Source of the DNA: an uncultured Candidatus Saccharibacteria bacterium
Lineage (GTDB): Bacteria; Patescibacteriota; Minisyncoccia; Phycocordibacterales; CAIZLB01
NCBI GenBank assembly: GCA_964368945.1
Contig: CAYJDM010000007.1
Coordinates: 1,365 to 59,018 of the forward strand
DNA length: 57,654 nt
Reading direction: 5' to 3'
A program made the position numbers and the translations under genes. Of the stretch, positions 45,081 to 57,654 are shown piece after piece (position 1 is the first letter of the stretch; every line of letters starts with the position of its first letter). The notes under the pieces are model-generated. The model was not told the DNA's origin and made no database searches. It saw nothing but the letters and a program-made list of their open reading frames with translations.

Positions 45081-46028
45081 GGCGTCTATTCCGAATACAT
45101 TATGCGAACTAACTCAAGAAAGCGGTCATCTTAAATGAAGCCTCTCAAGGTTGCATATTAAGAAGACCGCTCGAAAGGCGGCATCTTTTTTTCCAAAAAG
45201 ATAACGCTGAGAAAAGCGCAGAGTCCGAGTTCGGAGATTCCTTGAAATCAAAAACCTGTCCTGACATTTCAGTGAAGCGATTCATGTCGAAAGATATGAG
45301 TTGTTTGTATCTGGGTCTTTAGTCGGAGGCAGAGTCATTAGATTGGGCGAGAAGCCGAGCGAGAACTTCAACTGTCACAAGGTTGAGAGGTCGAGCATCT
45401 AATGACAAGCCACCGTATTCCTTCAAGTAAAAATACGGTGGTGCAGGTAACAAATAAAAGTGATTGTGGTCTTTATATTTCCTAATGGGATTTATAAGGG
45501 CATATGGTGGATGCCTTGGCATAACACAGCGATGAAGGACGTAGCATGGCGACGATATGCTTCGGGGAGGTGCCTAGCAACCTTTGATCCGAAGATTTCC
45601 GAATGGGGAAACCCCAGGGACATGAGCCCTGATCTAGTTTCATCTAGATGCGAACCCGGAGAAGTAAAACATTTCAGTAACCGGAGGAAAAGAAAACAAG
45701 CACGCAAGTGCACAATTCTCTAAGTAGCGGCGAGCGAAAAGGGAAGAGCCCAAACCAAGCTTTCCTATGGACGGTGACAATGGCTACGCAAGTAGCTGAT
45801 GTTTCTGTCTATTGGGTAGCTTGGGGTTGTAGGATAGAAACTGGACATTTATGTTCAAAGAGTTACAAAATGCTTCGTTAGCAGAATAAGCTGGAAAGCT
45901 TAACCCAAGACGGTGATAGTCCCGTAAGCGAAAACGAAGTATCTCTTGTTTCTACTCCTGAGTACCCCGAGACATGAATAGCTCGGGGGAATCCAGCAGT
46001 ACTAACTGCTAAGGCTAAATATGTGTTA

Positions 46029-46069
<41 letters not shown>

Positions 46070-47468
46070 AAGTCCGGTGAGGACAGTGAAATAGACCTGA
46101 AACCATATGCCTACAAGGAGTCGGAGCGGTAATTTATTACCGTCACGGCGTGCCTATTGAAGAATGAGCCAACGAGTTAATGAATACTGCGCGGCTAAGC
46201 CCGAGAGGGTGGAGCCATAGGGAAACCGAGTGCGAATAGCGCGTTTGTAGTATGCATTAGACCCGAAGCCAATGCGAGCTTACCATGAGCAGGGTGAACT
46301 ATGTCGAAAGATGTAGGGAGGCCCGAACCCGTTAGTCGTTCAACTCTTTGGGATGACTTGTGGTAAGAAGTGAAAAGCTAATCGAGCTTGGTAATAGCTG
46401 GTTCTCTCCGAAATAGCTTTTGGGTTAGCGTCACGTGTTCCCTCTGGGGGTAGAGCACTGGAAGGACTTGACAGGGAGAAATCTCGCAAGTCCTATCAAA
46501 CTCCGAATACCAGAGGTCAAGAACGTGGCAGTTAGACCGTGGGGGCGAAGCTCCACTGGTCAAAAGGGAAACAGCCCTTGATCCCAATTTAAGGTCCCTA
46601 AATTCATGCTAAGTGCAAAAGAAGGTGGTGGAATTTCATAGACAATGAGGAGGTTTGCTTAGAAGCAGCAATCCTTGAAAGATAGCGTAACAGCTCACTC
46701 ATCAAGAGACTTCGCGCCACAAATGATCGGGGCTCAAGCATAGTACCGAAATTTGGGATTTATATATTCTTCGGAATATATGAGTGGTAGGAGAGTGTTT
46801 GCATCGCGTTGAAGGGAAAGGGGTGACCCATCCTGGAGCATTGCAAAGCAAGAATGTTGGCACAAGTAACCACAATCGATGTGAAAAACATCGACGCCGA
46901 AAGATCAAGGTTTCCTCAGCTACGATTGTCGACTGAGGGTTAGTCAGGCCTAAGGGGATGGAGAGATCCGAACCCGATGGACACATGGTTAATATTCCAT
47001 GACTTTCGTATAGAATGATGGAGTGACGGAGTGGAGTATGTAGAACAGGTTATTGAATTCCTGTTTGTGTAGAGAGATAGTTGACTAGGCAAATCCGGTC
47101 ACTGACTTTAATGTCGATATCTGATTCTATATGACGTGAGTCTACAAAGCACGCTTCCGAGAAAACCTTCTAAGTTTATCTATACGAAAACTGTACCGCA
47201 AACCGACACAGGTGATCAGGTCGAGCAGACCAAGGCGAACGAGTGAGAGGTCTTCAAGGAACTCGGCAAAAAAGCAACCGTAACTTAGGGATAAGGTTCG
47301 CCCACAGCAATGTGGGTCTCAGCAAAAGTTTCTCTGGCGACTGTTTATCAAAAACACAGCTCCCTGCGAAGTCGCAAGACGATGTATAGGGGGTGACACC
47401 TGACCAATGCCAGAAGGTTAAATATCGGCGTTCTTATAGCAATATAAGGGTGACTGATATATGCCCTG

Positions 47469-47503
<35 letters not shown>

Positions 47504-47739
47504 TCAGCACTCATCGCAAGATGATTGCTGACGGACTAGGACTGTCATAGTAGTGTTTTGAGAAAACTAAAGAGTCGAATCGTAAAGATTTAAATTACAC
47601 ATTAAGTAGCTACCTACTGTGCAGTAATGCATCAGTTAGTCCAATATGGTTAGCGAGAGACCAACGCCATACATCCCAACTTTGCGATCGCAAGATCATG
47701 AAGAGGATGAAGATAGAGTCCTTCTGAGAGGAATAGAAG
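47504..47739 (+). other. 236-nt ORF-less intron-like insertion at the 23S site equivalent to E. coli U1931
   Basis: Interrupts ...ACGGTCCTAAGGT | AGCGAAATTCCTTGTC.... It follows a U and ends in G. It has GNRA-capped hairpins and AAGATAGAGTCC near its 3' end. Confidence 0.6.
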
Positions 47740-48402
47740 AGCGAAATTCCTTGTCTGGTAAGTTCAGACGCGCACGAATGGTGTAACGAGTTGGGAACTG
47801 TCTCGGAGACTTGCCCGGTGAAAATGCAATGGAGGTGAAGATGCCTCCTACCTGCAGCTAGACGAAAAGACCCCAGAAGCTTCACTGCAACCTGATATTG
47901 AGTGTATGTTTTTGCTGCGTAGCATAGATGGGAGAGGTTGAGATTTCGGTTTCGGCTGAAATGGACTCGTCAGTGAAATACCATTCTTCAAAAATATACA
48001 TTCTAACCTCGACGGCATAAAAACGTCGAGAAACAGTGTCTGGTGGGCAGTTTTAGTGGGGCGCTATCCTCCCAAAAAGTAACGGAGGAGTTTAAAGGTC
48101 AGCTAGGTGCGAATGGAAACCGTACCGATAGCGCAATGGCATAAGCTGGCTTAACTGTGAGACGTCAATGTCAAACAGACGCGAAAGCGGAACATAGTGA
48201 ACCGACCATACGCATTAGATGCGGTGGAAGATTATCTGATAAAAGCTACTCTGGGGATAACAGGCTGGTTGTATCTAAGAGTCCATATCGACGATACAGT
48301 TCGGCACCTCGATGTCGGCTCGACTTATCCTGGGGCTGTAGAAGGTCCCAAGGGTTTGGCTGTTCGCCAATTAAAAAGTCACGCGAGCTGGGTTCAGACC
48401 GT

Positions 48403-48762
48403 GTAGTAGTTAATCGCAAGATTTACTTCTACACAGTCTGAATCCTCGAGAGATTCATAAGTTTACAAGTCTAAGTAAACAAAAGATGTTAGACGAAAAC
48501 CAAATTCGATTCTTGTCCGAGTAGGACTAAGAACATACGAATATTCACGGCGGTCATTTGGAGAAATCCATTTTGATCAAGTTAACTAATTTCGGTAAAA
48601 TCCCAATGCCTCTGCGCGAGTACGCATGGACAATACCGAGGGAAGTTCAGGCGAAAGCATGAACGCCCGTAGAGACTACACGTTAACTATCTTCATTCAT
48701 GATTCAAATTATGAAAAAGATAATGATATAGTCCATTCCATGCAGTAATGCATGAAAAGAAG
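48403..48762 (+). other. 360-nt ORF-less group-I-like intron at the 23S site equivalent to E. coli U2593
   Basis: Interrupts ...GGGTTCAGACCGT | CGTGAGACAGGTTGG.... It follows a U and ends in G. It carries an R-like element GTAGAGACTACA (48669-48680) and an S-like element GATATAGTCC (48725-48734). Confidence 0.65.
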
Positions 48763-49167
48763 CGTGAGACAGGTTGGTCTCCTATCTGCTGCAGGCGTTG
48801 ATACTTGAGAAGATTTGCCCTTAGTACGAGAGGACCGGGGTGAACTAACCTCTGGTGTACCAGTTGTCATGCCAATGGCATTGCTGGGTAGCTATGTTGG
48901 GAATGGATAAGCTCTGAAAGCATCTAAGAGCGAAGCCAGCTTCAAGATTAGGTATCGTTTGAGGCCCGTGAGAGATGATCACGTTGATAGGCACCAAGTG
49001 TAAGCGCAGTAATGCGTTGAGCTGAGGTGTACTAATGCGCCGATTCCTATTAGGAAATATATTGATGACGATCACTTTTATTTGTTACGTGCATGATTAA
49101 AATACTTGAATCAAATCGCTGTAAAAGGCTTATTTGATATAAAAAAGACCAACCGAATTGACTCTTC

Positions 49168-49280
49168 TGTTCTGGTGACTTGTCGATGGGGAAACACCTG
49201 ATCTCATTCCGAACTCAGAAGTTAAGCCCATCAGAGGCGATGATACTCATTTATGGGGAAAGTAGCTCGTCGCCAGTACA
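49168..49280 (+). rRNA. rrf: 5S rRNA
   Basis: ...CCTGATCTCATTCCGAACTCAGAAGTTAAGCCCATCAG...GTAGCTCGTCGCCAG. Ends are approximate. Confidence 0.85.
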
Positions 49281-49294
49281 GAGTAGTCAAACAC

Positions 49295-49330
49295 AAAAGC
49301 CGCGTTCAGCAATGAATGCGGCTTTTGTCT
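49295..49330 (+). terminator. Terminator after the 5S
   Basis: aaaagccgc...gcggctttt hairpin followed by a T-rich tail. Confidence 0.7.
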
Positions 49331-49354
49331 TTGGTTTCTGATATAATTCACCGC

Positions 49355-50125
49355 ATGATATCTTGGTCAGCTCGTCGTCAGCTCGCATATGGAATGGCTT
49401 TTATCGTGCTTATTCTTCTCGTCGTCGGAGTGCCGATCTATCTTCATTTTTTCAATAAGGCGCCGACATGCATGGATCTGAAGCAGAATCAGAATGAGAC
49501 TGGCATCGATTGCGGTGGCATATGCGCACGCGCTTGCATCCAGGACGTCTTGCCAGAACCGATTCAGCTTTGGGCTCGCGCATTCAAAGTCTCAGGCGGA
49601 GTCCATAATCTCGTCGCATATGTGCAGAATGCCAATGTTAATTATGTGGCAAATCCTGCAGAATACGTGTTCAAGGTTTTCGATAAGGACAATGTGCTCA
49701 TCGGCCTGCGAATCGGCAAATCTGCAGTTCCTCCTGTAAAATCCTTTCCAATATTCGAGCAATCATTCGATGCCGGATTCAGAGAAGTGGGGAAGGTGAC
49801 ATTCGAATTCACTGAGCCTCTCGTATGGAATCGCTCGACTTCAGTGCGACCGGAGCTAATGGTCTCCGATCAACAGCTCGTCAACGCTTCAACGTCTCCT
49901 CGCCTCACAGCCAAGGTCATAAACAATACGCTTGCGCGATATGAATCGGTCGAAGTCGTCGCTATCGTATATGGTCAAAGCGAGAATGCCATCGCATCTT
50001 CTCGCACGATAGTGCCGCTCATCACGAGCAATTCTTCCATCGACGTAGTCTTTACATGGCCTGAAAAATTCAGCGAGCCGGTCGCAAAGGTGGATATAAT
50101 CCCTAAATTGCCAATCGAGCGCTAA
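49355..50125 (+). CDS. Hypothetical membrane-anchored protein with a Cys-rich juxtamembrane segment
   Basis: The ATG at 49355 is preferred because the 49316 track start lies inside the 5S terminator. One TM helix, then CMDL...GIDCGGICARAC. Confidence 0.5.
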   Translation: MISWSARRQLAYGMAFIVLILLVVGVPIYLHFFNKAPTCMDLKQNQNETGIDCGGICARACIQDVLPEPIQLWARAFKVSGGVHNLVAYVQNANVNYVANPAEYVFKVFDKDNVLIGLRIGKSAVPPVKSFPIFEQSFDAGFREVGKVTFEFTEPLVWNRSTSVRPELMVSDQQLVNASTSPRLTAKVINNTLARYESVEVVAIVYGQSENAIASSRTIVPLITSNSSIDVVFTWPEKFSEPVAKVDIIPKLPIER

Positions 50126-50153
50126 TCGCCTGCGCCGAGCATAGACATACGAT

Positions 50154-51374
50154 ATGAATAGATTTTTCGCAAAGGCACTAGAAAGAGGCGGCGGCACCAT
50201 GGGTTCTGCAATCGGCGGCGCCGGCAATGGCGGGGGCTTGTCCGGCAATGCCGGCGGCCGCCAGAAATCCAAAGTGGACTGGTGGCTTTTTGCGGCCGTC
50301 ATCCCGATCATGGGGGCTGGCATGGTTGCTATGAATTCCTTCTTCGGCAATGAGCATTTCTTTGGGCGACAGCTTATCTGGGTATGCGTAGGCTTGCTCA
50401 TCATGCTCGTGGCATCCCGCATCGACTTCAGGTTTCTGCGCCGCTCAGGGGTCGTCATAAGCGTCTATGCGGCATCTATCGCCATGCTTCTGGCGGTATT
50501 CGTTTTCGGATATGCGGCGAAAGGTGCGAAGAGCTGGATCTCATTCGGAGGTTTTTCCATACAGCCTGCTGACTTCGCAAAGATCGCGCTCATAATTCTT
50601 TTGGCAAAATATTTCTCGAGGCGCCATGTGGAGATCAGGCATATACGTCATATCCTCGTTTCAGCGATATATGCGCTTGTGCCATTCGTGCTCGTGGCAT
50701 TGCAGCCGGACTTCGGTTCCGCGATCACCATCTTTTTGATATGGTTCGGCATGGTGGCAGTATCGGGAATATCCAAAAAGCATCTCGCCCTCGTCATATT
50801 CACCGGCTTGGCAGCATTCGTGCTCCTCTGGAACTTCGGCTTCAAGGAATATCAAAAGCATCGAATCATCAATTTCGTGCACCCTTTGGCCGATATCCGC
50901 GGCACCGGATACAATGCATATCAATCCGTTATCGCTGTCGGATCTGGGGGCATCCTAGGGAAAGGGGTCGGATATGGAACGCAATCGCGACTCAGCTTCC
51001 TGCCAGAGTATGAGACTGACTTCATCTTCGCGGCATTTGCCGAGGAATGGGGATTCATTGGCGTTATAATCCTGCTCGTTCTATTCGGCATCGTTTTTTC
51101 CCGCATATTCAATGTGGCGAGGAAAGGGGAGACCAATTTCGAAATCCTGTTTGCTCTCGGAGTGGCGATTCTATTCATGACCCATCTGACGGTGAATATA
51201 GGCATGAATATTGGCTTGATGCCGGTGACCGGAATTCCCGTGCCATTCATGAGCTATGGAGGATCGCATCTTTTGGCTGAAAGCATCGCTGTGGGATTGC
51301 TAATGGGCATGCGCGGCTATGGCAGGCCTATTCATAGGGATGGGATCAAGAATGAATTCCTTGGAGTCGAATAG
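50154..51374 (+). CDS. SEDS-family peptidoglycan glycosyltransferase (RodA/FtsW)
   Basis: About 10 TM helices, with QPDFGSA, GYG.Q and PFMSYGGSHLL motifs. Confidence 0.85.
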   Translation: MNRFFAKALERGGGTMGSAIGGAGNGGGLSGNAGGRQKSKVDWWLFAAVIPIMGAGMVAMNSFFGNEHFFGRQLIWVCVGLLIMLVASRIDFRFLRRSGVVISVYAASIAMLLAVFVFGYAAKGAKSWISFGGFSIQPADFAKIALIILLAKYFSRRHVEIRHIRHILVSAIYALVPFVLVALQPDFGSAITIFLIWFGMVAVSGISKKHLALVIFTGLAAFVLLWNFGFKEYQKHRIINFVHPLADIRGTGYNAYQSVIAVGSGGILGKGVGYGTQSRLSFLPEYETDFIFAAFAEEWGFIGVIILLVLFGIVFSRIFNVARKGETNFEILFALGVAILFMTHLTVNIGMNIGLMPVTGIPVPFMSYGGSHLLAESIAVGLLMGMRGYGRPIHRDGIKNEFLGVE

Positions 51375-51401
51375 ACGCCTTGCGTCCATTCGACTCCAAG
51401 G
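51359..51401. terminator. Long hairpin overlapping the RodA/FtsW stop
   Basis: ccttggagtcgaat / attcgactccaagg 14-bp arms with an inner gacgc/gcgtc stem. No strong T-run. Confidence 0.45.
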
Positions 51402-51419
51402 AATATAAAATTGCTGGGT

Positions 51420-51443
51420 GTATTTGTATTTGTATTTGTATTT
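51420..51443. repeat. Hexanucleotide tandem repeat (gtattt) x4
   Basis: Read directly from the sequence. Lies between convergent genes. Confidence 0.9.
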
Positions 51444-51451
51444 TACTTTTC

Positions 51452-52678
51452 CTAAATCTCTCCATTCATCAGCTGCAGCAATCTCTGATACTGCTTCTCG
51501 AAATCATATTCAGCGCGAACTTTTTCATATAAAAGCTCAGCATATTGCCGCTCCTCGCCTCGATGGTCGTCTATATAGCAGAGCGTATTCTTGATTTCCT
51601 GAGCCCTCTTCGGCTTGATGAGGAAGCCCGTTCGCAGATTCTCGATTACCTCCGAGATGCCGCCGACATTCGTCGCGATAATGGGCACTTTTGCGAAGCC
51701 TGCTTCAATAATCGTATATGGCAAGCCTTCCTTGACCGAGCTGAGGAGAAGCAGATCGAATGCCAACATATATGTGCGAGCATCGACGACATATCCCGCG
51801 AAGGTCACATCTTCCTGAAGGCCGAGCTGCTTGGCCAGATTCATAAGGTTCTGCTTTTCTTCGCCTTCGCTGACGATGATCATGTGAGTATTCATATTCG
51901 AGCCGAGCACATCTTTGTATTGCTTCAGTCCCTCGAGTGCATAGGTAATTCCCTTATTCTTGTGGAGCTCGGCATTGATTCCGATAATGCGAGCATCGCG
52001 CTTGGCGAGGTCTATGAATTTTTCCTCGCATGACATTGCACTCATATTGTCGGTTGGATTGGCGCAGAGCAGCTTCTCCAGGGCCTCGGCTTCGGGGAGG
52101 AGAGGGAATTCATGGATTCCATTCTTGATTATGGTCAGCTTATTTTTGGTAAAAGGCCAATCCTTAACCATATCGTATTCCTTCTGCGTGAGGACGATCA
52201 CCTTATGCGCGAACATGATCGTAAGCCAAGAGAAAAATTTTATCAAAATAACCTGCCATATAGGCCTATCCTCCAGGAAAGGCCAGCCATGATTCGTATA
52301 TATGACATGCTTGACTCCAAAGACTCGTCCGATGACTGAGCCCAATCCTCCGAGCTTCGGGCTGTTCACATGCATGATGTCGGGCCGGATCTTTTTTACT
52401 ATCTTGCCCAATTGGATCAGCGTAGAAAATTCCTTGAAAAGATTCATATCCCTCTGCGCATTGTCGAGAGAATGGATAGGGATGCCGGCTTGTTCAAGCT
52501 TGGTTCTCATCATGCCATTGCCTCCGCAGGCAACATGCACTTCGAAAGCCTCGCTGCCATTCTGACTTTTCTGCTCCTTGCTCCGAATCGCCAGCTCGTA
52601 TACGTACTTCTGAGCGCCGCCAAAATTGGACTTCGTGATGGCGTAGAGAATTTTCTTCATTGTGATATTATAGGCCAA
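51452..52678 (-). CDS. Glycosyltransferase family 4 (GT-B, group 1)
   Basis: C-terminal EGLPYTIIEAGFAKVPIIATNVGGISEVI (E-x7-E) motif. Confidence 0.8.
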   Translation of the reverse strand: MAYNITMKKILYAITKSNFGGAQKYVYELAIRSKEQKSQNGSEAFEVHVACGGNGMMRTKLEQAGIPIHSLDNAQRDMNLFKEFSTLIQLGKIVKKIRPDIMHVNSPKLGGLGSVIGRVFGVKHVIYTNHGWPFLEDRPIWQVILIKFFSWLTIMFAHKVIVLTQKEYDMVKDWPFTKNKLTIIKNGIHEFPLLPEAEALEKLLCANPTDNMSAMSCEEKFIDLAKRDARIIGINAELHKNKGITYALEGLKQYKDVLGSNMNTHMIIVSEGEEKQNLMNLAKQLGLQEDVTFAGYVVDARTYMLAFDLLLLSSVKEGLPYTIIEAGFAKVPIIATNVGGISEVIENLRTGFLIKPKRAQEIKNTLCYIDDHRGEERQYAELLYEKVRAEYDFEKQYQRLLQLMNGEI

Positions 52679-52681
52679 TAT

Positions 52682-54052
52682 ATGAGAAGCGTATATAGGT
52701 ATGAATCAGCCTCCATGGCATTCGGAGACATTGCGATTTTCGTGCTGTCCCTTTGGCTTACCTTATCTATTCGATACTTGGAATTCCCAGATATGGCTCT
52801 ATTTAAGGGTCATTTGCAAGCTTTCGCGCCTGTCTTCATTCTCTGGCTCTGCTTATATGTCCTCGGCGGCCTCTATGATCGGCATCTTCGATTCGCCAAA
52901 GCCAAGCTTTTCGGCAAGCTCTGGATGGCGCAGACTATCAATGTCGCTTTGGCTTTCGTCTACTTTTTCTCCCTCAAGACATCGACGATTGCCGGAGGAA
53001 TCACGCCGAAGACGATCCTTCTCCTCTATCTCATCATCTCCGGCCTGCTCATAACATTCTGGCGCGTTTATATATATGCAAAAATTACCGAGCTTCACCC
53101 TCTCAAGGTGCTCTGCGTAGGGCAGGGTGCCGACTTCGAAAGGCTCGTCAATGCGAAGGAGAAATTGCGGCAGTCAGGCATCGAAATCATCCCAGCCCGA
53201 AGCGCTGAGGAGTTCGACGCATTGATAGCCCGCGAGGATGCCAGCGAGAAAGATAAGAAAAACAGGGCAATGAATGATTCGCGCATCGATGTCATCGTAT
53301 CGAATGGCTTCGACCCCGCCTTCAAGGATCTGACGGTTCGGATCTATGACTCTCTTTTCAATGGCAAGGTATATGTCGATTTCTCCGATTTCTATGAGGA
53401 GGTTTTCGAAATGATCCCGCTGCAGGCAATAGATGAGAGCTGGTTTCTCAAATACGTTTCGGTAAAGCGCCGATACATTTACGATATCCTGAAGCGGATG
53501 ATGGACATGGTATTGGCTTTTCCGATATTGCTGATCTCTACGATCTACTATCCATTCGTGATTTTGGCGCGAAAGATCGAGAATCTCGGTCCGATCTGGG
53601 CGATCCAGACTCGAATAGGCGAGAATGGCAAGCCGATTCAGATTTTCAAATTCGCAAGCATGACCGTCAGCGATGCGGGCAAGGCTATCGTGAAGAACGA
53701 TAATCGGATCACTCCCGTCGGAGCCTTTATCCGCAAGACTCGTCTCGATGAATTTCCTCAGCTTTGGAGCGTTGTGAGAGGGGATCAGTCCCTCATCGGC
53801 CCTCGCCCTGAGATGCCCAACCTCGTAGAGTTTTATAAAAAAGAAATACCTCACTACAATATGCGCCATATCATCAAGCCGGGACTATCCGGCTGGGCGC
53901 AAATCCATCATGATGTGCCGCCTCAGACCGTCGAGGCTACAAAGGTCAAGCTTGCCTATGACTTGTATTACATCAAGAATCGCAGCCTCTGGCTCGACCT
54001 CCATATCGCGTTTTCTACCATAAAGACTCTCTTGTCACGGACTGGATTATAG
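52682..54052 (+). CDS. Polyprenyl-phosphate sugar phosphotransferase (WbaP/bacterial sugar transferase family)
   Basis: N-terminal TM helices and a C-terminal ...RLDEFPQLWSVVRGDQSLIGPRPEMP... core. A start at 52682 (or 52715) is chosen because the 52370 track start overlaps the opposite-strand GT4 gene. Confidence 0.8.
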   Translation: MRSVYRYESASMAFGDIAIFVLSLWLTLSIRYLEFPDMALFKGHLQAFAPVFILWLCLYVLGGLYDRHLRFAKAKLFGKLWMAQTINVALAFVYFFSLKTSTIAGGITPKTILLLYLIISGLLITFWRVYIYAKITELHPLKVLCVGQGADFERLVNAKEKLRQSGIEIIPARSAEEFDALIAREDASEKDKKNRAMNDSRIDVIVSNGFDPAFKDLTVRIYDSLFNGKVYVDFSDFYEEVFEMIPLQAIDESWFLKYVSVKRRYIYDILKRMMDMVLAFPILLISTIYYPFVILARKIENLGPIWAIQTRIGENGKPIQIFKFASMTVSDAGKAIVKNDNRITPVGAFIRKTRLDEFPQLWSVVRGDQSLIGPRPEMPNLVEFYKKEIPHYNMRHIIKPGLSGWAQIHHDVPPQTVEATKVKLAYDLYYIKNRSLWLDLHIAFSTIKTLLSRTGL

Positions 54053-54067
54053 CTATAATGGCCGGAT

Positions 54068-55471
54068 ATGGTCACAAATTCATCTATGCCTTCGTCTTCG
54101 CAGCCGAAGTCCCGCACGCCTCATTCAGTCGTCAAGAAAAGAATCTCAGCATTCTTTATCCTTGTAATCGGTCTGCTTTTCGGCGCATTCATTCATTATT
54201 CACAGTCCGCAACAGGAGGATTCTTGTCGAAATTCCCATTCAAGCTTGGCCTTGACCTCAACGGAGGAACTCATCTCGTTTACAAGGCGGATACTTCAAA
54301 GATCGCAGCAGCAGAAGTCGCGGATGCCATGCAGAGCTTGCGAGACGTCATCAATGCCCGAATCAATGGGCTCGGAGTTTCTGAGCCTATTATCCAGACG
54401 GAAAAGACCACTATCGATGGCGTAGAAGTTCAGAAGCTCATCGTCGAGCTGCCTGGCGTTACCGATGTGAAGCAGGCTGTCGATACGATCGGCCAGACGC
54501 CAGTACTCGAATTCAAGAGATTGAACCCGAATGCCGCAGCGCTTACCGCATCGTCGACCCCTGAGGACGTTGCAAATAACTTCCTTGCGACAGAATTGAC
54601 TGGCCGATATCTCCAGACTGCGACAGTTCAGACGGATACGCAGACGAATCGACCGATCGTTTCGCTTGAATTCAATGAGCAGGGCAAGGAACTCTTCGCA
54701 AAGCTTACAAAGGAAGAGATCGGCAAGCCTATCGCCATCTTCCTCGATGGCCAGATCATCTCTGCACCGACCGTGCAGGATGAGATCCGAGACGGAAAGG
54801 CCGTCATCACGGGAAGCTATAGCATTACCGAGGCTCGAGACTTGGCACGAAGCCTCCGATATGGGGCGCTGCCTGTTCCTGTCGAGCTGATCGGAACGCA
54901 GACTATCGGTGCATCACTCGGCGCTGACGCTATCGCTGCCAGCATCAATGCGGGTATCTGGGGCTTGATCGCGATCTCGATCTTCCTCATCATCTGGTAC
55001 CGAGTGCCGGGACTGATCGCTGTAGTCGCTTTGATCCTATACGTCATCATCAACTTTACATTATTCAAACTCCTCGGAGTCGTGCTTACATCAGCTGGCT
55101 TGGCCGCATTCATCATCTCGCTCGGCATGGCGGTGGACGGAAATATCCTCATCTTCGAGCGAATGAGAGAGGAATTCGAAAAGGGAGAAGGCAAGAATCA
55201 GTCTTTGGAAGCAGGCATCAGGGAAGGCTTTGCGCGAGCTTGGCTTTCAATCCGAGACAGCAACCTTTCGAGCATTATCACGGGCGCCATCCTCTTCTTC
55301 ACGGCGACATCCGCCTTGGTCAAGGGATTCGCATTCGTATTCATCATCGGCGTCCTCGTATCCGCATTCACGGCGATTACGATTTCTCGAACATTCCTCT
55401 TGGCTCTAAGCAAGGGCACATATTCTGGTCGACGAAAGATATTGTTTGGGCATGGCATCAAGTTCAAATAA
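54068..55471 (+). CDS. secD: Protein translocase subunit SecD
   Basis: Periplasmic P1 domain and a C-terminal 6-TM block (...LGMAVDGNILIFERMREE...). Confidence 0.9.
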   Translation: MVTNSSMPSSSQPKSRTPHSVVKKRISAFFILVIGLLFGAFIHYSQSATGGFLSKFPFKLGLDLNGGTHLVYKADTSKIAAAEVADAMQSLRDVINARINGLGVSEPIIQTEKTTIDGVEVQKLIVELPGVTDVKQAVDTIGQTPVLEFKRLNPNAAALTASSTPEDVANNFLATELTGRYLQTATVQTDTQTNRPIVSLEFNEQGKELFAKLTKEEIGKPIAIFLDGQIISAPTVQDEIRDGKAVITGSYSITEARDLARSLRYGALPVPVELIGTQTIGASLGADAIAASINAGIWGLIAISIFLIIWYRVPGLIAVVALILYVIINFTLFKLLGVVLTSAGLAAFIISLGMAVDGNILIFERMREEFEKGEGKNQSLEAGIREGFARAWLSIRDSNLSSIITGAILFFTATSALVKGFAFVFIIGVLVSAFTAITISRTFLLALSKGTYSGRRKILFGHGIKFK

Positions 55472-55509
55472 TTATAAAAAGAACCTAATAACCAACTAAC
55501 CTTACAATC

Positions 55510-56427
55510 ATGTTCGTAGTCACATACAGAAAAATATTTTACGCGATCTCAGTAGTCCTTATCGCATTCTCGATCTTTGCCATCTCATTCTGGGGATTGA
55601 ATCTAGGTATCGACTTCAAGGGAGGCTCCATCCTTGAGGCTGAATTCCCAGCAGGCACGACAGTTACGGATGCGGCTGTCCATGAGGCATTGGATAATGC
55701 CGGACAGAAAGACGCATTGGTTCGAACGACGAGCGTGGGTGACAAGTCAGGATATATCGTACGAACGCATTCGCTCACTGAACCGGAACGGCAGAGCGTT
55801 TCAGCGGCATTCACAGGCTTGGGCGGCGAGGTAAAGCGGCTCGACACCGTCGGTCCTATCCTCGGTCAGGAACTTCAGAAGAAGGCGGTTTCATCGATCA
55901 TCTTCGTGCTCATCGCGATCATGCTCTTCATCACATATGCTTTCCGACATGTATCATTGCCGGTATCTTCATGGAAATATGCATCGGTCGCACTCATCGC
56001 ATTGGCGCATGATGTAATCGTTCCGCTCGGAGTATTCTCTTTCCTTGGACGAAACGGGGGATTCGAGATCGATGCGCTTTTCATCACTGCTCTCTTGGTA
56101 ATCCTAGGATTCTCGATCCATGACACCATCGTGGTATTCGACCGAACGAGAGAAAACCTCAAGAATGGGGAATTGAAGCGACGCTCATTCGAGCATGTCG
56201 TGGGCATGAGCGTTCAGGAGACATTCTCTCGATCGATCAATACGTCATTGACGACGATCATCGCATTGGTAGTGCTCTGGTTCCTCGGCCCGATGACTGT
56301 CAAGAACTTCTCTCTGGCACTCATCATCGGAATCGTCGTCGGTACATATTCATCCATCTTCATCGGCTCGCCGCTTCTCGTCACATTGCAGAAATGGCAG
56401 GCGAAACGCGCGAATAAGAGCTCGTAA
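55510..56427 (+). CDS. secF: Protein translocase subunit SecF
   Basis: LGIDFKGGS...HDVIVPLG...GFSIHDTIVVFDR.REN. Confidence 0.9.
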   Translation: MFVVTYRKIFYAISVVLIAFSIFAISFWGLNLGIDFKGGSILEAEFPAGTTVTDAAVHEALDNAGQKDALVRTTSVGDKSGYIVRTHSLTEPERQSVSAAFTGLGGEVKRLDTVGPILGQELQKKAVSSIIFVLIAIMLFITYAFRHVSLPVSSWKYASVALIALAHDVIVPLGVFSFLGRNGGFEIDALFITALLVILGFSIHDTIVVFDRTRENLKNGELKRRSFEHVVGMSVQETFSRSINTSLTTIIALVVLWFLGPMTVKNFSLALIIGIVVGTYSSIFIGSPLLVTLQKWQAKRANKSS

Positions 56428-56577
56428 AATATCTGCGCAGAAGAAGATTCTTGGATCCATACGAAAACCGCTACCGACTTATCGACAGCGGTTTTCTACT
56501 TTTATCATCCAATAGATGGTTTAATGTAAGGTATATCACGGTTTTGTGAGAAATGCATTAATAATTTTTTTAAAAAA

Positions 56578-57114
56578 ATGAATCAAAACGACAAGGAGAT
56601 GGCAGAACAGATATCAGCAAGGAATGCAGTCCCGATGAAGCCGATCAAGAGAAAGAAAAGCTTCCTCAGATTTCTATTGCTCGTCGTCTCATATGCTATC
56701 GTCGCGGTCATTGTCTGGCAGGTTGCCGCCAAGCAGGCGGACGTTGACCAGGTGAAGCAGCAAGAGCGAGCGCAGCAGGAGATCAAGGAGACAGTAGAAA
56801 AGGTTGGCAAGCTCATGATCCTTCCTTCTGTCGAGACGGAATTGCCGCAGATAATTCCAATCATCGATGCCGCTGGCCTTTCAAAGACTCGGCCATTCTT
56901 TGCTGATGTGAAGAATGGCGATCAGGTCCTTATCTATCTCAAGGCCCAGAAAGCGATCATCTATCGCGCTTCAGAAAACAAGATCGTAAATGTCGGTCCG
57001 GTAATCGCGGATAATTCTACTTCTGCAGCGACAGGATCGAATGCGAAGGCCTCAGCGCCTGCGGCTTCGCAGCCTTCAACATCGTCTAGTTCATCAAGCG
57101 CGTCTTCTAGATAG
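56578..57114 (+). CDS. Hypothetical membrane-anchored protein with a Ser/Ala-rich tail
   Basis: One TM helix (FLLLVVSYAIVAVIVW). No family recognised. Confidence 0.45.
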   Translation: MNQNDKEMAEQISARNAVPMKPIKRKKSFLRFLLLVVSYAIVAVIVWQVAAKQADVDQVKQQERAQQEIKETVEKVGKLMILPSVETELPQIIPIIDAAGLSKTRPFFADVKNGDQVLIYLKAQKAIIYRASENKIVNVGPVIADNSTSAATGSNAKASAPAASQPSTSSSSSSASSR

Positions 57115-57242
57115 GCATTTTGCTTCAATAAGTTAGATGGTGGATAAAAGATCCCGCTGCCAAAAATAGGCATCAGGATCTTTTTCAATATATGGCTATA
57201 AATAAGGCTAAAAAGACCAATATGGAGTCCTTGATATCGATG

Positions 57243-57270
57243 TTGACAAGGTTATTGATCTGCGTATAAT
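57243..57270 (+). promoter_or_regulatory. Consensus promoter upstream of the 16S (TTGACA-16 nt-TATAAT)
   Basis: ttgacaaggttattgatctgcgtataat here, compared with ttgacaatggtttcgcgatgcgtataat at 45053. Confidence 0.55.
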
Positions 57271-57594
57271 AGCCCTTACACCTGAAGAGGGTGTTTTAAG
57301 TTAGCTTCAAAACCCGATCTGAAATAGCAGTAGAAAAGCCCAAAAAGCCGATCTTCTGAATTTTAAAAAAGGAGACGTTGCGTTGACAATTTCATACGTA
57401 AAATGCCGGACATTCCCAAGCCACAAGACTTGGAGATGTCCGGCAGCAGAAAGCATCAAATTAAATATAATTCACAAAAAAGTCCTTATTGATCGAACGG
57501 CTCGGCCGGGCTCAATAAGGCATGTATCATTCTATTCTTTTTGTTCTGCTCGAGTTTGAATATCGACGGTTGCAGCAATGCATCAAGAGATATT

Positions 57595-57654
57595 TATAAT
57601 TAGAGTTTGATCCTAGCTCAGGATGAACGCTGGCGGCGTGGATAAGGCATGCAA
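57595..57654 (+). rRNA. rrs: 16S rRNA, 5' end only (runs off the window)
   Basis: AGAGTTTGATCCTAGCTCAGGATGAACGCTGGCGGCGTG. Confidence 0.85.

Follow-up and report, generated by a model that had tools for sequence, protein, structure and literature searches.

The window analysed here, a stretch of DNA of 57,654 nucleotides, comes from a CPR bacterium whose assembly has 1.08 Mb and is 95.75% complete, the genomes of its relatives ranging between 0.5 and 1.0 Mb. According to Rfam, the window contains a bacterial 23S rRNA gene (45481-49056), a 5S rRNA gene (49171-49278) and the start of a 16S rRNA gene (57595). These are found on one strand in the order 23S, 5S, about 8.3 kb of protein-coding frames and 16S start (45481-57654), thus the rRNA genes depart from the usual 16S-23S-5S operon order. 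No tRNA genes were found in the whole 57.6-kb window.

Alignment of the 23S gene to the Rfam LSU model shows GGGUUCAGACCGU, then 366 unaligned bases against 6 in the model, and then ACAGGUUGGUC, which places an insert of 360 nt at 48403-48762, between U48402 and C48763. The U preceding the insert corresponds to base 2594 of the annotated 2905-nt E. coli 23S copy; since this copy exceeds the standard numbering, which we take to be of 2904 nt, by one base, the insertion site is U2593. An original prediction, made from the sequence alone, had described a 360-nt insert after U2593 that ends in G and bears no open reading frame, and all three points hold: the LSU alignment and the E. coli copy give the same site, the last base is G48762, and the longest stop-to-stop frame within the insert does not exceed 49 codons. 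The same prediction had remarked that the 5' exon reads GACCGU; C2590 of this string faces G2604 in helix 93, where the bacterial consensus in the LSU alignment is A-U. A contig of 434 nt from a DNA run spans 48350-48783 with zero differences. A single copy each of the intron and of the 3' exon is present in the assembly (95.75% complete), and with only one 23S gene all ribosomes depend on the intron-split gene. In relation to E. coli, the 23S gene also shows a 104-nt insert at 45770-45873, near position 287, and two deletions of 26 nt (1745-1770) and 17 nt (2789-2805).

The features of the locus are as follows:

48390-48402, plus strand: 5' exon strand GGGUUCAGACCGU, 23S G2581-U2593 (LSU alignment and E. 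coli position)
48403-48762, plus strand: group I intron, 360 nt, ORF-less (RF00028, LSU alignment, frame check, helix counts)
48403-48432, plus strand: hairpin H1, starting at intron base 1, with a GCAA cap at 48416-19 (MFE fold, covariation)
48433-48435, plus strand: spacer ACA; A48433/C48434 can pair with U2593/G2592 in a closed hairpin
48436-48445, plus strand: putative distal exon-binding strand (a), GUCUGAAUCC, complementary to exon G2581-C2590; matches three exon variants, 74 of 75 homologs
48446-48543, plus strand: variable linker domain; local hairpins (48461-48480, 48504-48542); semi-conserved motif UUAGAC (48489-94)
48544-48549, plus strand: P10 guide UUCACG, pairing with 3' exon CGUGAG; tracks four 3'-exon variants
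48550-48555, plus strand: P1 guide (IGS) GCGGUC, pairing with exon GACCGU; G48550 forms a wobble with U2593 (U48402)
48556-48573, plus strand: P2 hairpin with GAAA loop; 7 of 7 pairs change on both sides
48581-48586, plus strand: P3 5' strand (partner 48682-48687); 100% paired, with both-sided changes in 4 of 6 pairs
48592-48639, plus strand: P4 (48592-97 with 48634-39) around P5 (48601-03 with 48628-30) and a variable extension (helix counts)
48640-48668, plus strand: P6 (48640-42 with 48666-68) and P6a hairpin with GAAA loop (helix count, fold)
48672-48678, plus strand: P7 5' strand, in the R element (partner 48729-48734); 6 of 6 pairs invariant, 100% paired
48682-48687, plus strand: P3 3' strand, 2-3 nt after P7
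48688-48722, plus strand: P8 hairpin; 5 of 6 pairs change on both sides
48729-48734, plus strand: P7 3' strand, S element (helix count)
48736-48761, plus strand: P9.0 (UUC 48736-38 with GAA 48759-61) around P9 (48739-44 with 48749-54, GUAA loop) (helix counts)
48762, plus strand: terminal G (omega G); 75 of 75 homologs end in G
48763-48768, plus strand: first six bases of the 3' exon, CGUGAG (C2594-G2599), partner of the P10 guide (LSU alignment, covariation)

DNA similarity to the intron extends to 28 of 60 relatives and to 29 of the 49 other species of the family, with 0 of 7 in one genus; at seven loci examined in relatives the site is uninterrupted, so that intron-less alleles exist in the same family. 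The first 26 homologs extracted are located at the same site and range between 297 and 598 nt, and further fetches extended the set to 37. A pattern scan of one genome per species gave at least 120 loci: among the matches listed, 45 were L2593 introns, seven of them already in the set, and 75 loci were other introns or chance matches, the 15-letter pattern being too short for the 596 Gb searched. The total sample contains 75 distinct L2593 introns of 245-840 nt and is biased by the scan pattern. A class-level search by DNA similarity found the intron in three of 400 genomes, a figure which understates its spread because the pattern scan finds members in many CPR lineages; among the matches listed, records with members of the intron family are titled Parcubacteria, Paceibacterota, Nomurabacteria and similar. 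Three of the 75 sampled members (L101, L076 and L128) show ORFs of 143-173 amino acids with a LAGLIDADG_1 domain, located downstream of the guide. As the few ORF-bearing members encode LAGLIDADG proteins, the window copy is either an endonuclease-less derivative or never had such a gene. One of the LAGLIDADG_1-bearing members lies on a contig whose title names an archaeon, and a different member of the family lies on one titled Gammaproteobacteria; these placements may reflect binning errors or transfer.

The insert matches RF00028 at 48504-48755 with a score of 62.6 bits (cut-off 50) and an E value of 1.5e-13, and its fold has a z-score of −4.86, with 0 of 100 shuffles folding equally well. 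The 48403-48762 insert is a group I intron, which bears out the original proposal of a group I-like intron and of this covariance search as its check. An RNase III-type intervening sequence, which is a simple extended stem-loop replacing a helix tip, with no catalytic core, does not match this insert, which has a full group I core. Rfam places its first helix at 48508-48556; this helix was set aside, since comparison of the homologs gives a local hairpin at 48504-42 and the guide at 48544-55.

Core helices P10, P2-P9 and P9.0 were drawn on the window sequence and scored on an alignment of 29 of the 37 homologs, the eight with the longest cores being left out. In these 29 homologs, 95.7% of the 1473 cells of P2-P10 are paired, against 30-46% with slid partners, and 29 of the 51 core pairs show changes on both sides. 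None of 500 shuffles attains these values. Helices P3, P4, P5, P6 and P8 are 92-100% paired, with compensatory changes, and the nested helices reappear when the intron by itself is folded thermodynamically. The UUC/GAA of P9.0 alternates among homologs with AUG/CAU. P7 and P1 are invariant, so covariation neither supports nor contradicts either helix. The P3/P7 pseudoknot, on whose existence the original prediction had made its proposal depend, and the P4-P6 domain can both be built, with P3 covarying and P7 invariant. Several strings singled out in that prediction fall into place within the same fold: the R- and S-like strings are GUAGAGACUACA at 48669-48680 and GAUAUAGUCC at 48725-48734, their GACUA (48674-78) and UAGUC (48729-33) can pair in P7, and the GNRA-capped hairpins aauc-GCAA-gauu and ugca-GUAA-ugca are located at 48412-48423 and 48741-48752, respectively. 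Additional GAAA loops are found at 48563-66 and 48653-56. The gap between P7 and P3' has only 2 nt in the window, with identical spacing in 75 of 75 homologs, and a gap of 2-3 nt leaves no room for P7.1/P7.2. The site is the classical L2593 of the original prediction, while the type of intron differs from the one that this name implies.

The string UUCACG-GCGGUC (48544-48555) directly precedes P2, which is the position expected of a guide. Its second half was correctly noted in advance as complementary to exon GACCGU through a terminal G-U, and it is the P1 guide. Conservation is what supports P1, a pair that never varies: the motif YGGCGG is present in 74 of 75 homologs, and 17 of 75 show GCGGC, with which P1 spans 2590-2593 only. 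In P10, the central pairs both change on both sides and none is unpaired in the 29 homologs. Across the 75 introns, the guide reads CACG opposite 3' exon CGUGAG in 52, UGCG opposite CGCAAG in 13, UACG opposite CGUAAG in four and CGCG opposite CGCGAG in two; the remaining four comprise two with one G.U for a Watson-Crick pair, one with a wobble and a mismatch, and one mis-assignment of the script. A P10 guide which follows the changes of the 3' exon makes sense only where selection acts on exon ligation.

An interval of 141 nt separates the guide from the 5' splice site. This domain opens with hairpin H1, whose first five nucleotides are paired in at least four of five positions in 74 of 74 homologs, and it ends with a linker that ranges from 15 to 278 nt across homologs. 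Between them, after the spacer, lies a second strand complementary to the 5' exon, which in this gene forms part of the peptidyl-transferase loop and helix 93 and is complementary to two intron segments. The original prediction had noticed both complementarities, and both are real, although they differ in kind: GCGGUC is the P1 guide and GUCUGAAUCC is a separate strand, here named (a). The string GUCUGAA reported for the latter is located at 48436-48442 and not at 48434-48440, and the complementarity extends to 48445, over 10 nt.

Strand (a) changes together with the exon. Exons with UUCAGAC face UCUGA(A/G) in 51 of 51 homologs, those with UUCAAAC face UUUG.. in 19 of 20, and those with UUUAGAC face UCUAAA in four of four. 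Nine of the nine positions opposite exon 2581-2589 are paired in 70 of 75 introns. In a count of 37 sequences, 88.4% of cells are paired, against 21-51% with slid partners, and column pair 8/181 shows 33 GC, four AU and no unpaired combination. The complementarity of (a) in single introns is weak, with 14 of 75 introns beating 99% of shuffles; a control region 3' of the guide commonly pairs with the exon at seven to eight of nine positions and reaches nine of nine in three of 75. The exon state changes 12 times on the best intron tree, with one independent contrast on well-supported branches, the tree being poorly resolved and the homologs being kin, so that independent events are not countable. 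One member, L076, shows no strand (a), and its guide is located at base 27, which is the ordinary layout. UUAGAC at 48489-94 was also considered as a partner of (a) and found unsupported: it is 88.1% paired with 0 both-sided changes, 252 of 500 shuffles reach this share, and more than 10 homologs either lack the motif or show another sequence in its place.

Removal of this intron from the only 23S transcript is predicted with high probability for an ORF-less group I intron with an IC3-like core, a guide and the extra (a)/H1 domain. As (a) matches all three 5'-exon variants (74 of 75) and is separate from the P1 guide, we read the guide as split and permuted. A further-reaching interpretation, which we place at about one in two (roughly 0.5), is that this intron family recognises the 5' exon by such a guide, made of a distal strand of 9-10 nt and a proximal strand of 4-6 nt. 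At the same even odds, the distal strand would sit in the P1 loop domain after H1 and the proximal guide beside P2, and together with P10 they would read about 19 contiguous bases of the peptidyl-transferase centre.

The course of splicing may then be pictured as follows. H1 and (a), transcribed first, would catch the peptidyl-transferase strand in a long hairpin. The guide would subsequently claim the final 4-6 bases of the exon, thereby forming P1, with (a) still holding 2581-2588/9, and an external guanosine bound in P7 would cut after U2593. Finally, G48762, placed by P9.0 and P10, would replace the guanosine, the exons would be joined, and helix 93 could form. Strand (a) would be an anchor next to a short P1, a role played in tRNA introns by the anticodon stem.

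The possible alternative that survives best is that the (a):exon helix is an inhibitory conformer and not a co-existing anchor: a hairpin closed by U2593-A48433 would hide the splice site until the guide displaces (a), in the manner of the competing 5'-exon hairpin of Tetrahymena pre-rRNA. Such a conformer could even be a timing or checkpoint device which keeps the peptidyl-transferase strand out of the ribosome fold. Several features speak for this alternative, which we consider tentative. In the window intron three exon bases (2588-2590) are shared by the (a) helix and P1, so that (a) and the guide compete for them and the two helices may alternate and not co-exist. In competition with P1, the spacer can pair with G2592 in all 37 sequences (GC in 36, GU in one) and with U2593 in 31 of 37 (UA in 30, UG in one), and the spacer ACG found in five of 74 members makes a perfect 13-bp helix with the exon. 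In addition, the MFE fold yields the closed exon:(a) and H1 hairpin with a z-score of −5.77. On the other hand, P1 is confined to 2590-2593 in 17 of the 75 introns and (a) stops short of C2590 in at least 15, and in the wider family the (a) helix and P1 are then adjacent and do not overlap, as co-existence predicts, and persistence in 74 of 75 members is unexpected for a purely inhibitory element.

A need of the splicing reaction for a protein helper supplied in trans, on the view that the intron is A+U-rich and has lost its own endonuclease or maturase, is improbable. It would accord with the ORF-less sequence, with the existence of relatives bearing LAGLIDADG ORFs and with the statement in PMC11270868 that homing endonucleases may also promote splicing; however, 72 of the 75 sampled members show no ORF of a known family and yet keep the whole fold.

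That the intron is splicing-dead, either retained in the mature 23S or excised without ligation to give an RNase III-like fragmented 23S, is very unlikely. The exact joint of 48402 with 48763 is present in contigs from RNA libraries of two studies and gives a weak hint of splicing, the shorter side measuring 18-22 nt and possibly coming from relatives, so that these contigs are not attributable to this organism; the contigs of three RNA-library runs gave no cover inside the intron, which counts as no finding. In favour of a dead intron, the same 23S gene carries other inserts of 104 and 236 nt, and a title in the reference list of PMC11270868 concerns an unspliced group I intron in a Chlamydiales 23S gene; the text of the same paper, citing Brown et al., indicates that such inserts are removed from CPR rRNA transcripts. 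Against a dead intron stand the compensatory changes which keep the core helices, the P10 guide tracking the 3' exon, the terminal G in 75 of 75 members with the covarying P9.0, and the location of the insert in the helix 93 loop of the only 23S gene.

Lastly, a complementarity of (a) to the exon with no RNA role, for example a leftover of insertion kept by descent, draws on the weak per-intron significance and on the few supported contrasts among related homologs, but can hardly be credited, given that differences at paired positions keep the pair with one exception in 74, that C becomes U only where the exon has A2588, G becomes A where it has U2586, and A/G or U/C changes are confined to positions facing U or G, and that the position right after H1 is fixed while the surrounding sequence varies freely.

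A second insert in the same 23S gene, of 236 nt, is located at 47504-47739 after ...CCUAAGGU, at E. coli U1931, and also ends in G. Its RF00028 score is only 15.7 bits; the Rfam model under-calls small introns in these genes. Homologs of 200-365 nt occupy this position in 12 of 60 relatives, with 0 of four genomes of the same genus. All of these inserts open with a covarying hairpin at base 1, which is followed by a strand complementary to exon −10 to −5 (GGACUAGGAC). Further on, a conserved GCUACCU complements exon −4 to −1 and the first three bases of the 3' exon, with a U-A and not a U.G at the splice site, and the 3' end covaries like P9.0 (UUC/GAA versus AAC/GUU). The U1931 insert probably represents a divergent group I intron of very small size that shares the split layout.

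The genome also has a second intron matching RF00028, at L002:1494-1722 on the minus strand, with 53.8 bits when the locus was searched alone. Judged by eye, it interrupts a tRNA-like gene behind the second base of the anticodon; the loop would read CUGUCAC, which is Asp/GUC-like, and the acceptor and anticodon stems pair. ARAGORN called no tRNA at this locus. We know of no group I intron in a tRNA-Asp gene.

Group I introns of CPR rRNA genes are already catalogued, and the presence of the window intron adds little to them. What merits attention is the conserved second exon-binding strand beside a very short P1, changing together with the exon, which is a testable structural idea. If true, it would add to the means by which group I ribozymes are known to choose and retain a splice site, and could explain how members with a P1 of 4 bp hold the cut exon, as well as the site specificity of endonuclease-less copies, for example in reverse splicing. 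Engineered ribozymes would then have a natural model for guides of greater length and specificity and, given the likeness of the U1931 insert, the split layout may be a general design of small rRNA introns.

The closest known systems are the CPR introns themselves. According to Tsurumaki et al. 2024 (PMC11270868), group I introns are frequent in CPR 23S genes, including at site 2593, and often bear LAGLIDADG_1. The window intron shares with them the host group, as judged by small genome size and by the titles of the records with homologs, the site, the Rfam model and, in some members of its family, LAGLIDADG_1 ORFs; the text of that paper catalogues sites and endonucleases, whereas the window copy is ORF-less. 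The term 'guide sequence' occurs 0 times in its main text, and its supplements may list this intron family. A search of the open-access literature, supplements excluded, found no description of a natural split or extended group I guide. Group I introns at CPR 23S position 2593 are thus already published, and the split-guide arrangement is the new element.

Like the window intron and its family, classical L2593 introns, one of which encodes I-CreI in the Chlamydomonas chloroplast, are inserted after U2593 and are associated with LAGLIDADG endonucleases. In cyanobacteria, L2593 introns have a P7.1/P7.2 extension of about 65 nt (Haugen et al. 2007, PMC1995217), and those of DPANN archaea were found with the IA3 model and none by RF00028 (Nawrocki et al. 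2018, PMC6125680). In contrast to these IA-type introns, the window intron shows no P7.1/P7.2 and scores above the RF00028 cut-off. Two structurally different intron lineages at U2593 fit an endonuclease-driven reuse of a hot spot.

Introns of subgroup IC3 combine a compact core with a P2 and a short P5, bear GNRA loops on P2 and P9, and lack P5abc and P7.1/P7.2. The window intron resembles the small IC3 introns of tRNA anticodon loops in its compact core of about 210 nt, its GNRA-capped P2 and P9, its short P5, its P9.0 and its lack of P7.1/P7.2; examples of that subgroup are the Azoarcus and cyanobacterial tRNA introns (named in PMC3984707). It also has core strings in common with the 229-nt intron of the tRNA-like gene of the same genome, with a score of 128.5 against 86 ± 7 for shuffles. 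By the criteria above and by this likeness, the core looks IC3-like. It differs from tRNA introns in being located in rRNA, with a 141-nt domain between splice site and guide, and in that the helix beside P1 would be made with an intron strand instead of the other half of an anticodon stem.

Two further systems resemble the proposed arrangement. Group II introns pair EBS1 and EBS2 with IBS1 and IBS2, so that two intron segments bind adjacent stretches of the 5' exon, and the split guide would be their natural group I counterpart, by analogy only, as the two ribozyme classes are unrelated. In engineered trans-splicing group I ribozymes with extended guides, pairing beyond P1 likewise holds the substrate; those guides are man-made, and the part of the substrate that they bind lies across the splice site.
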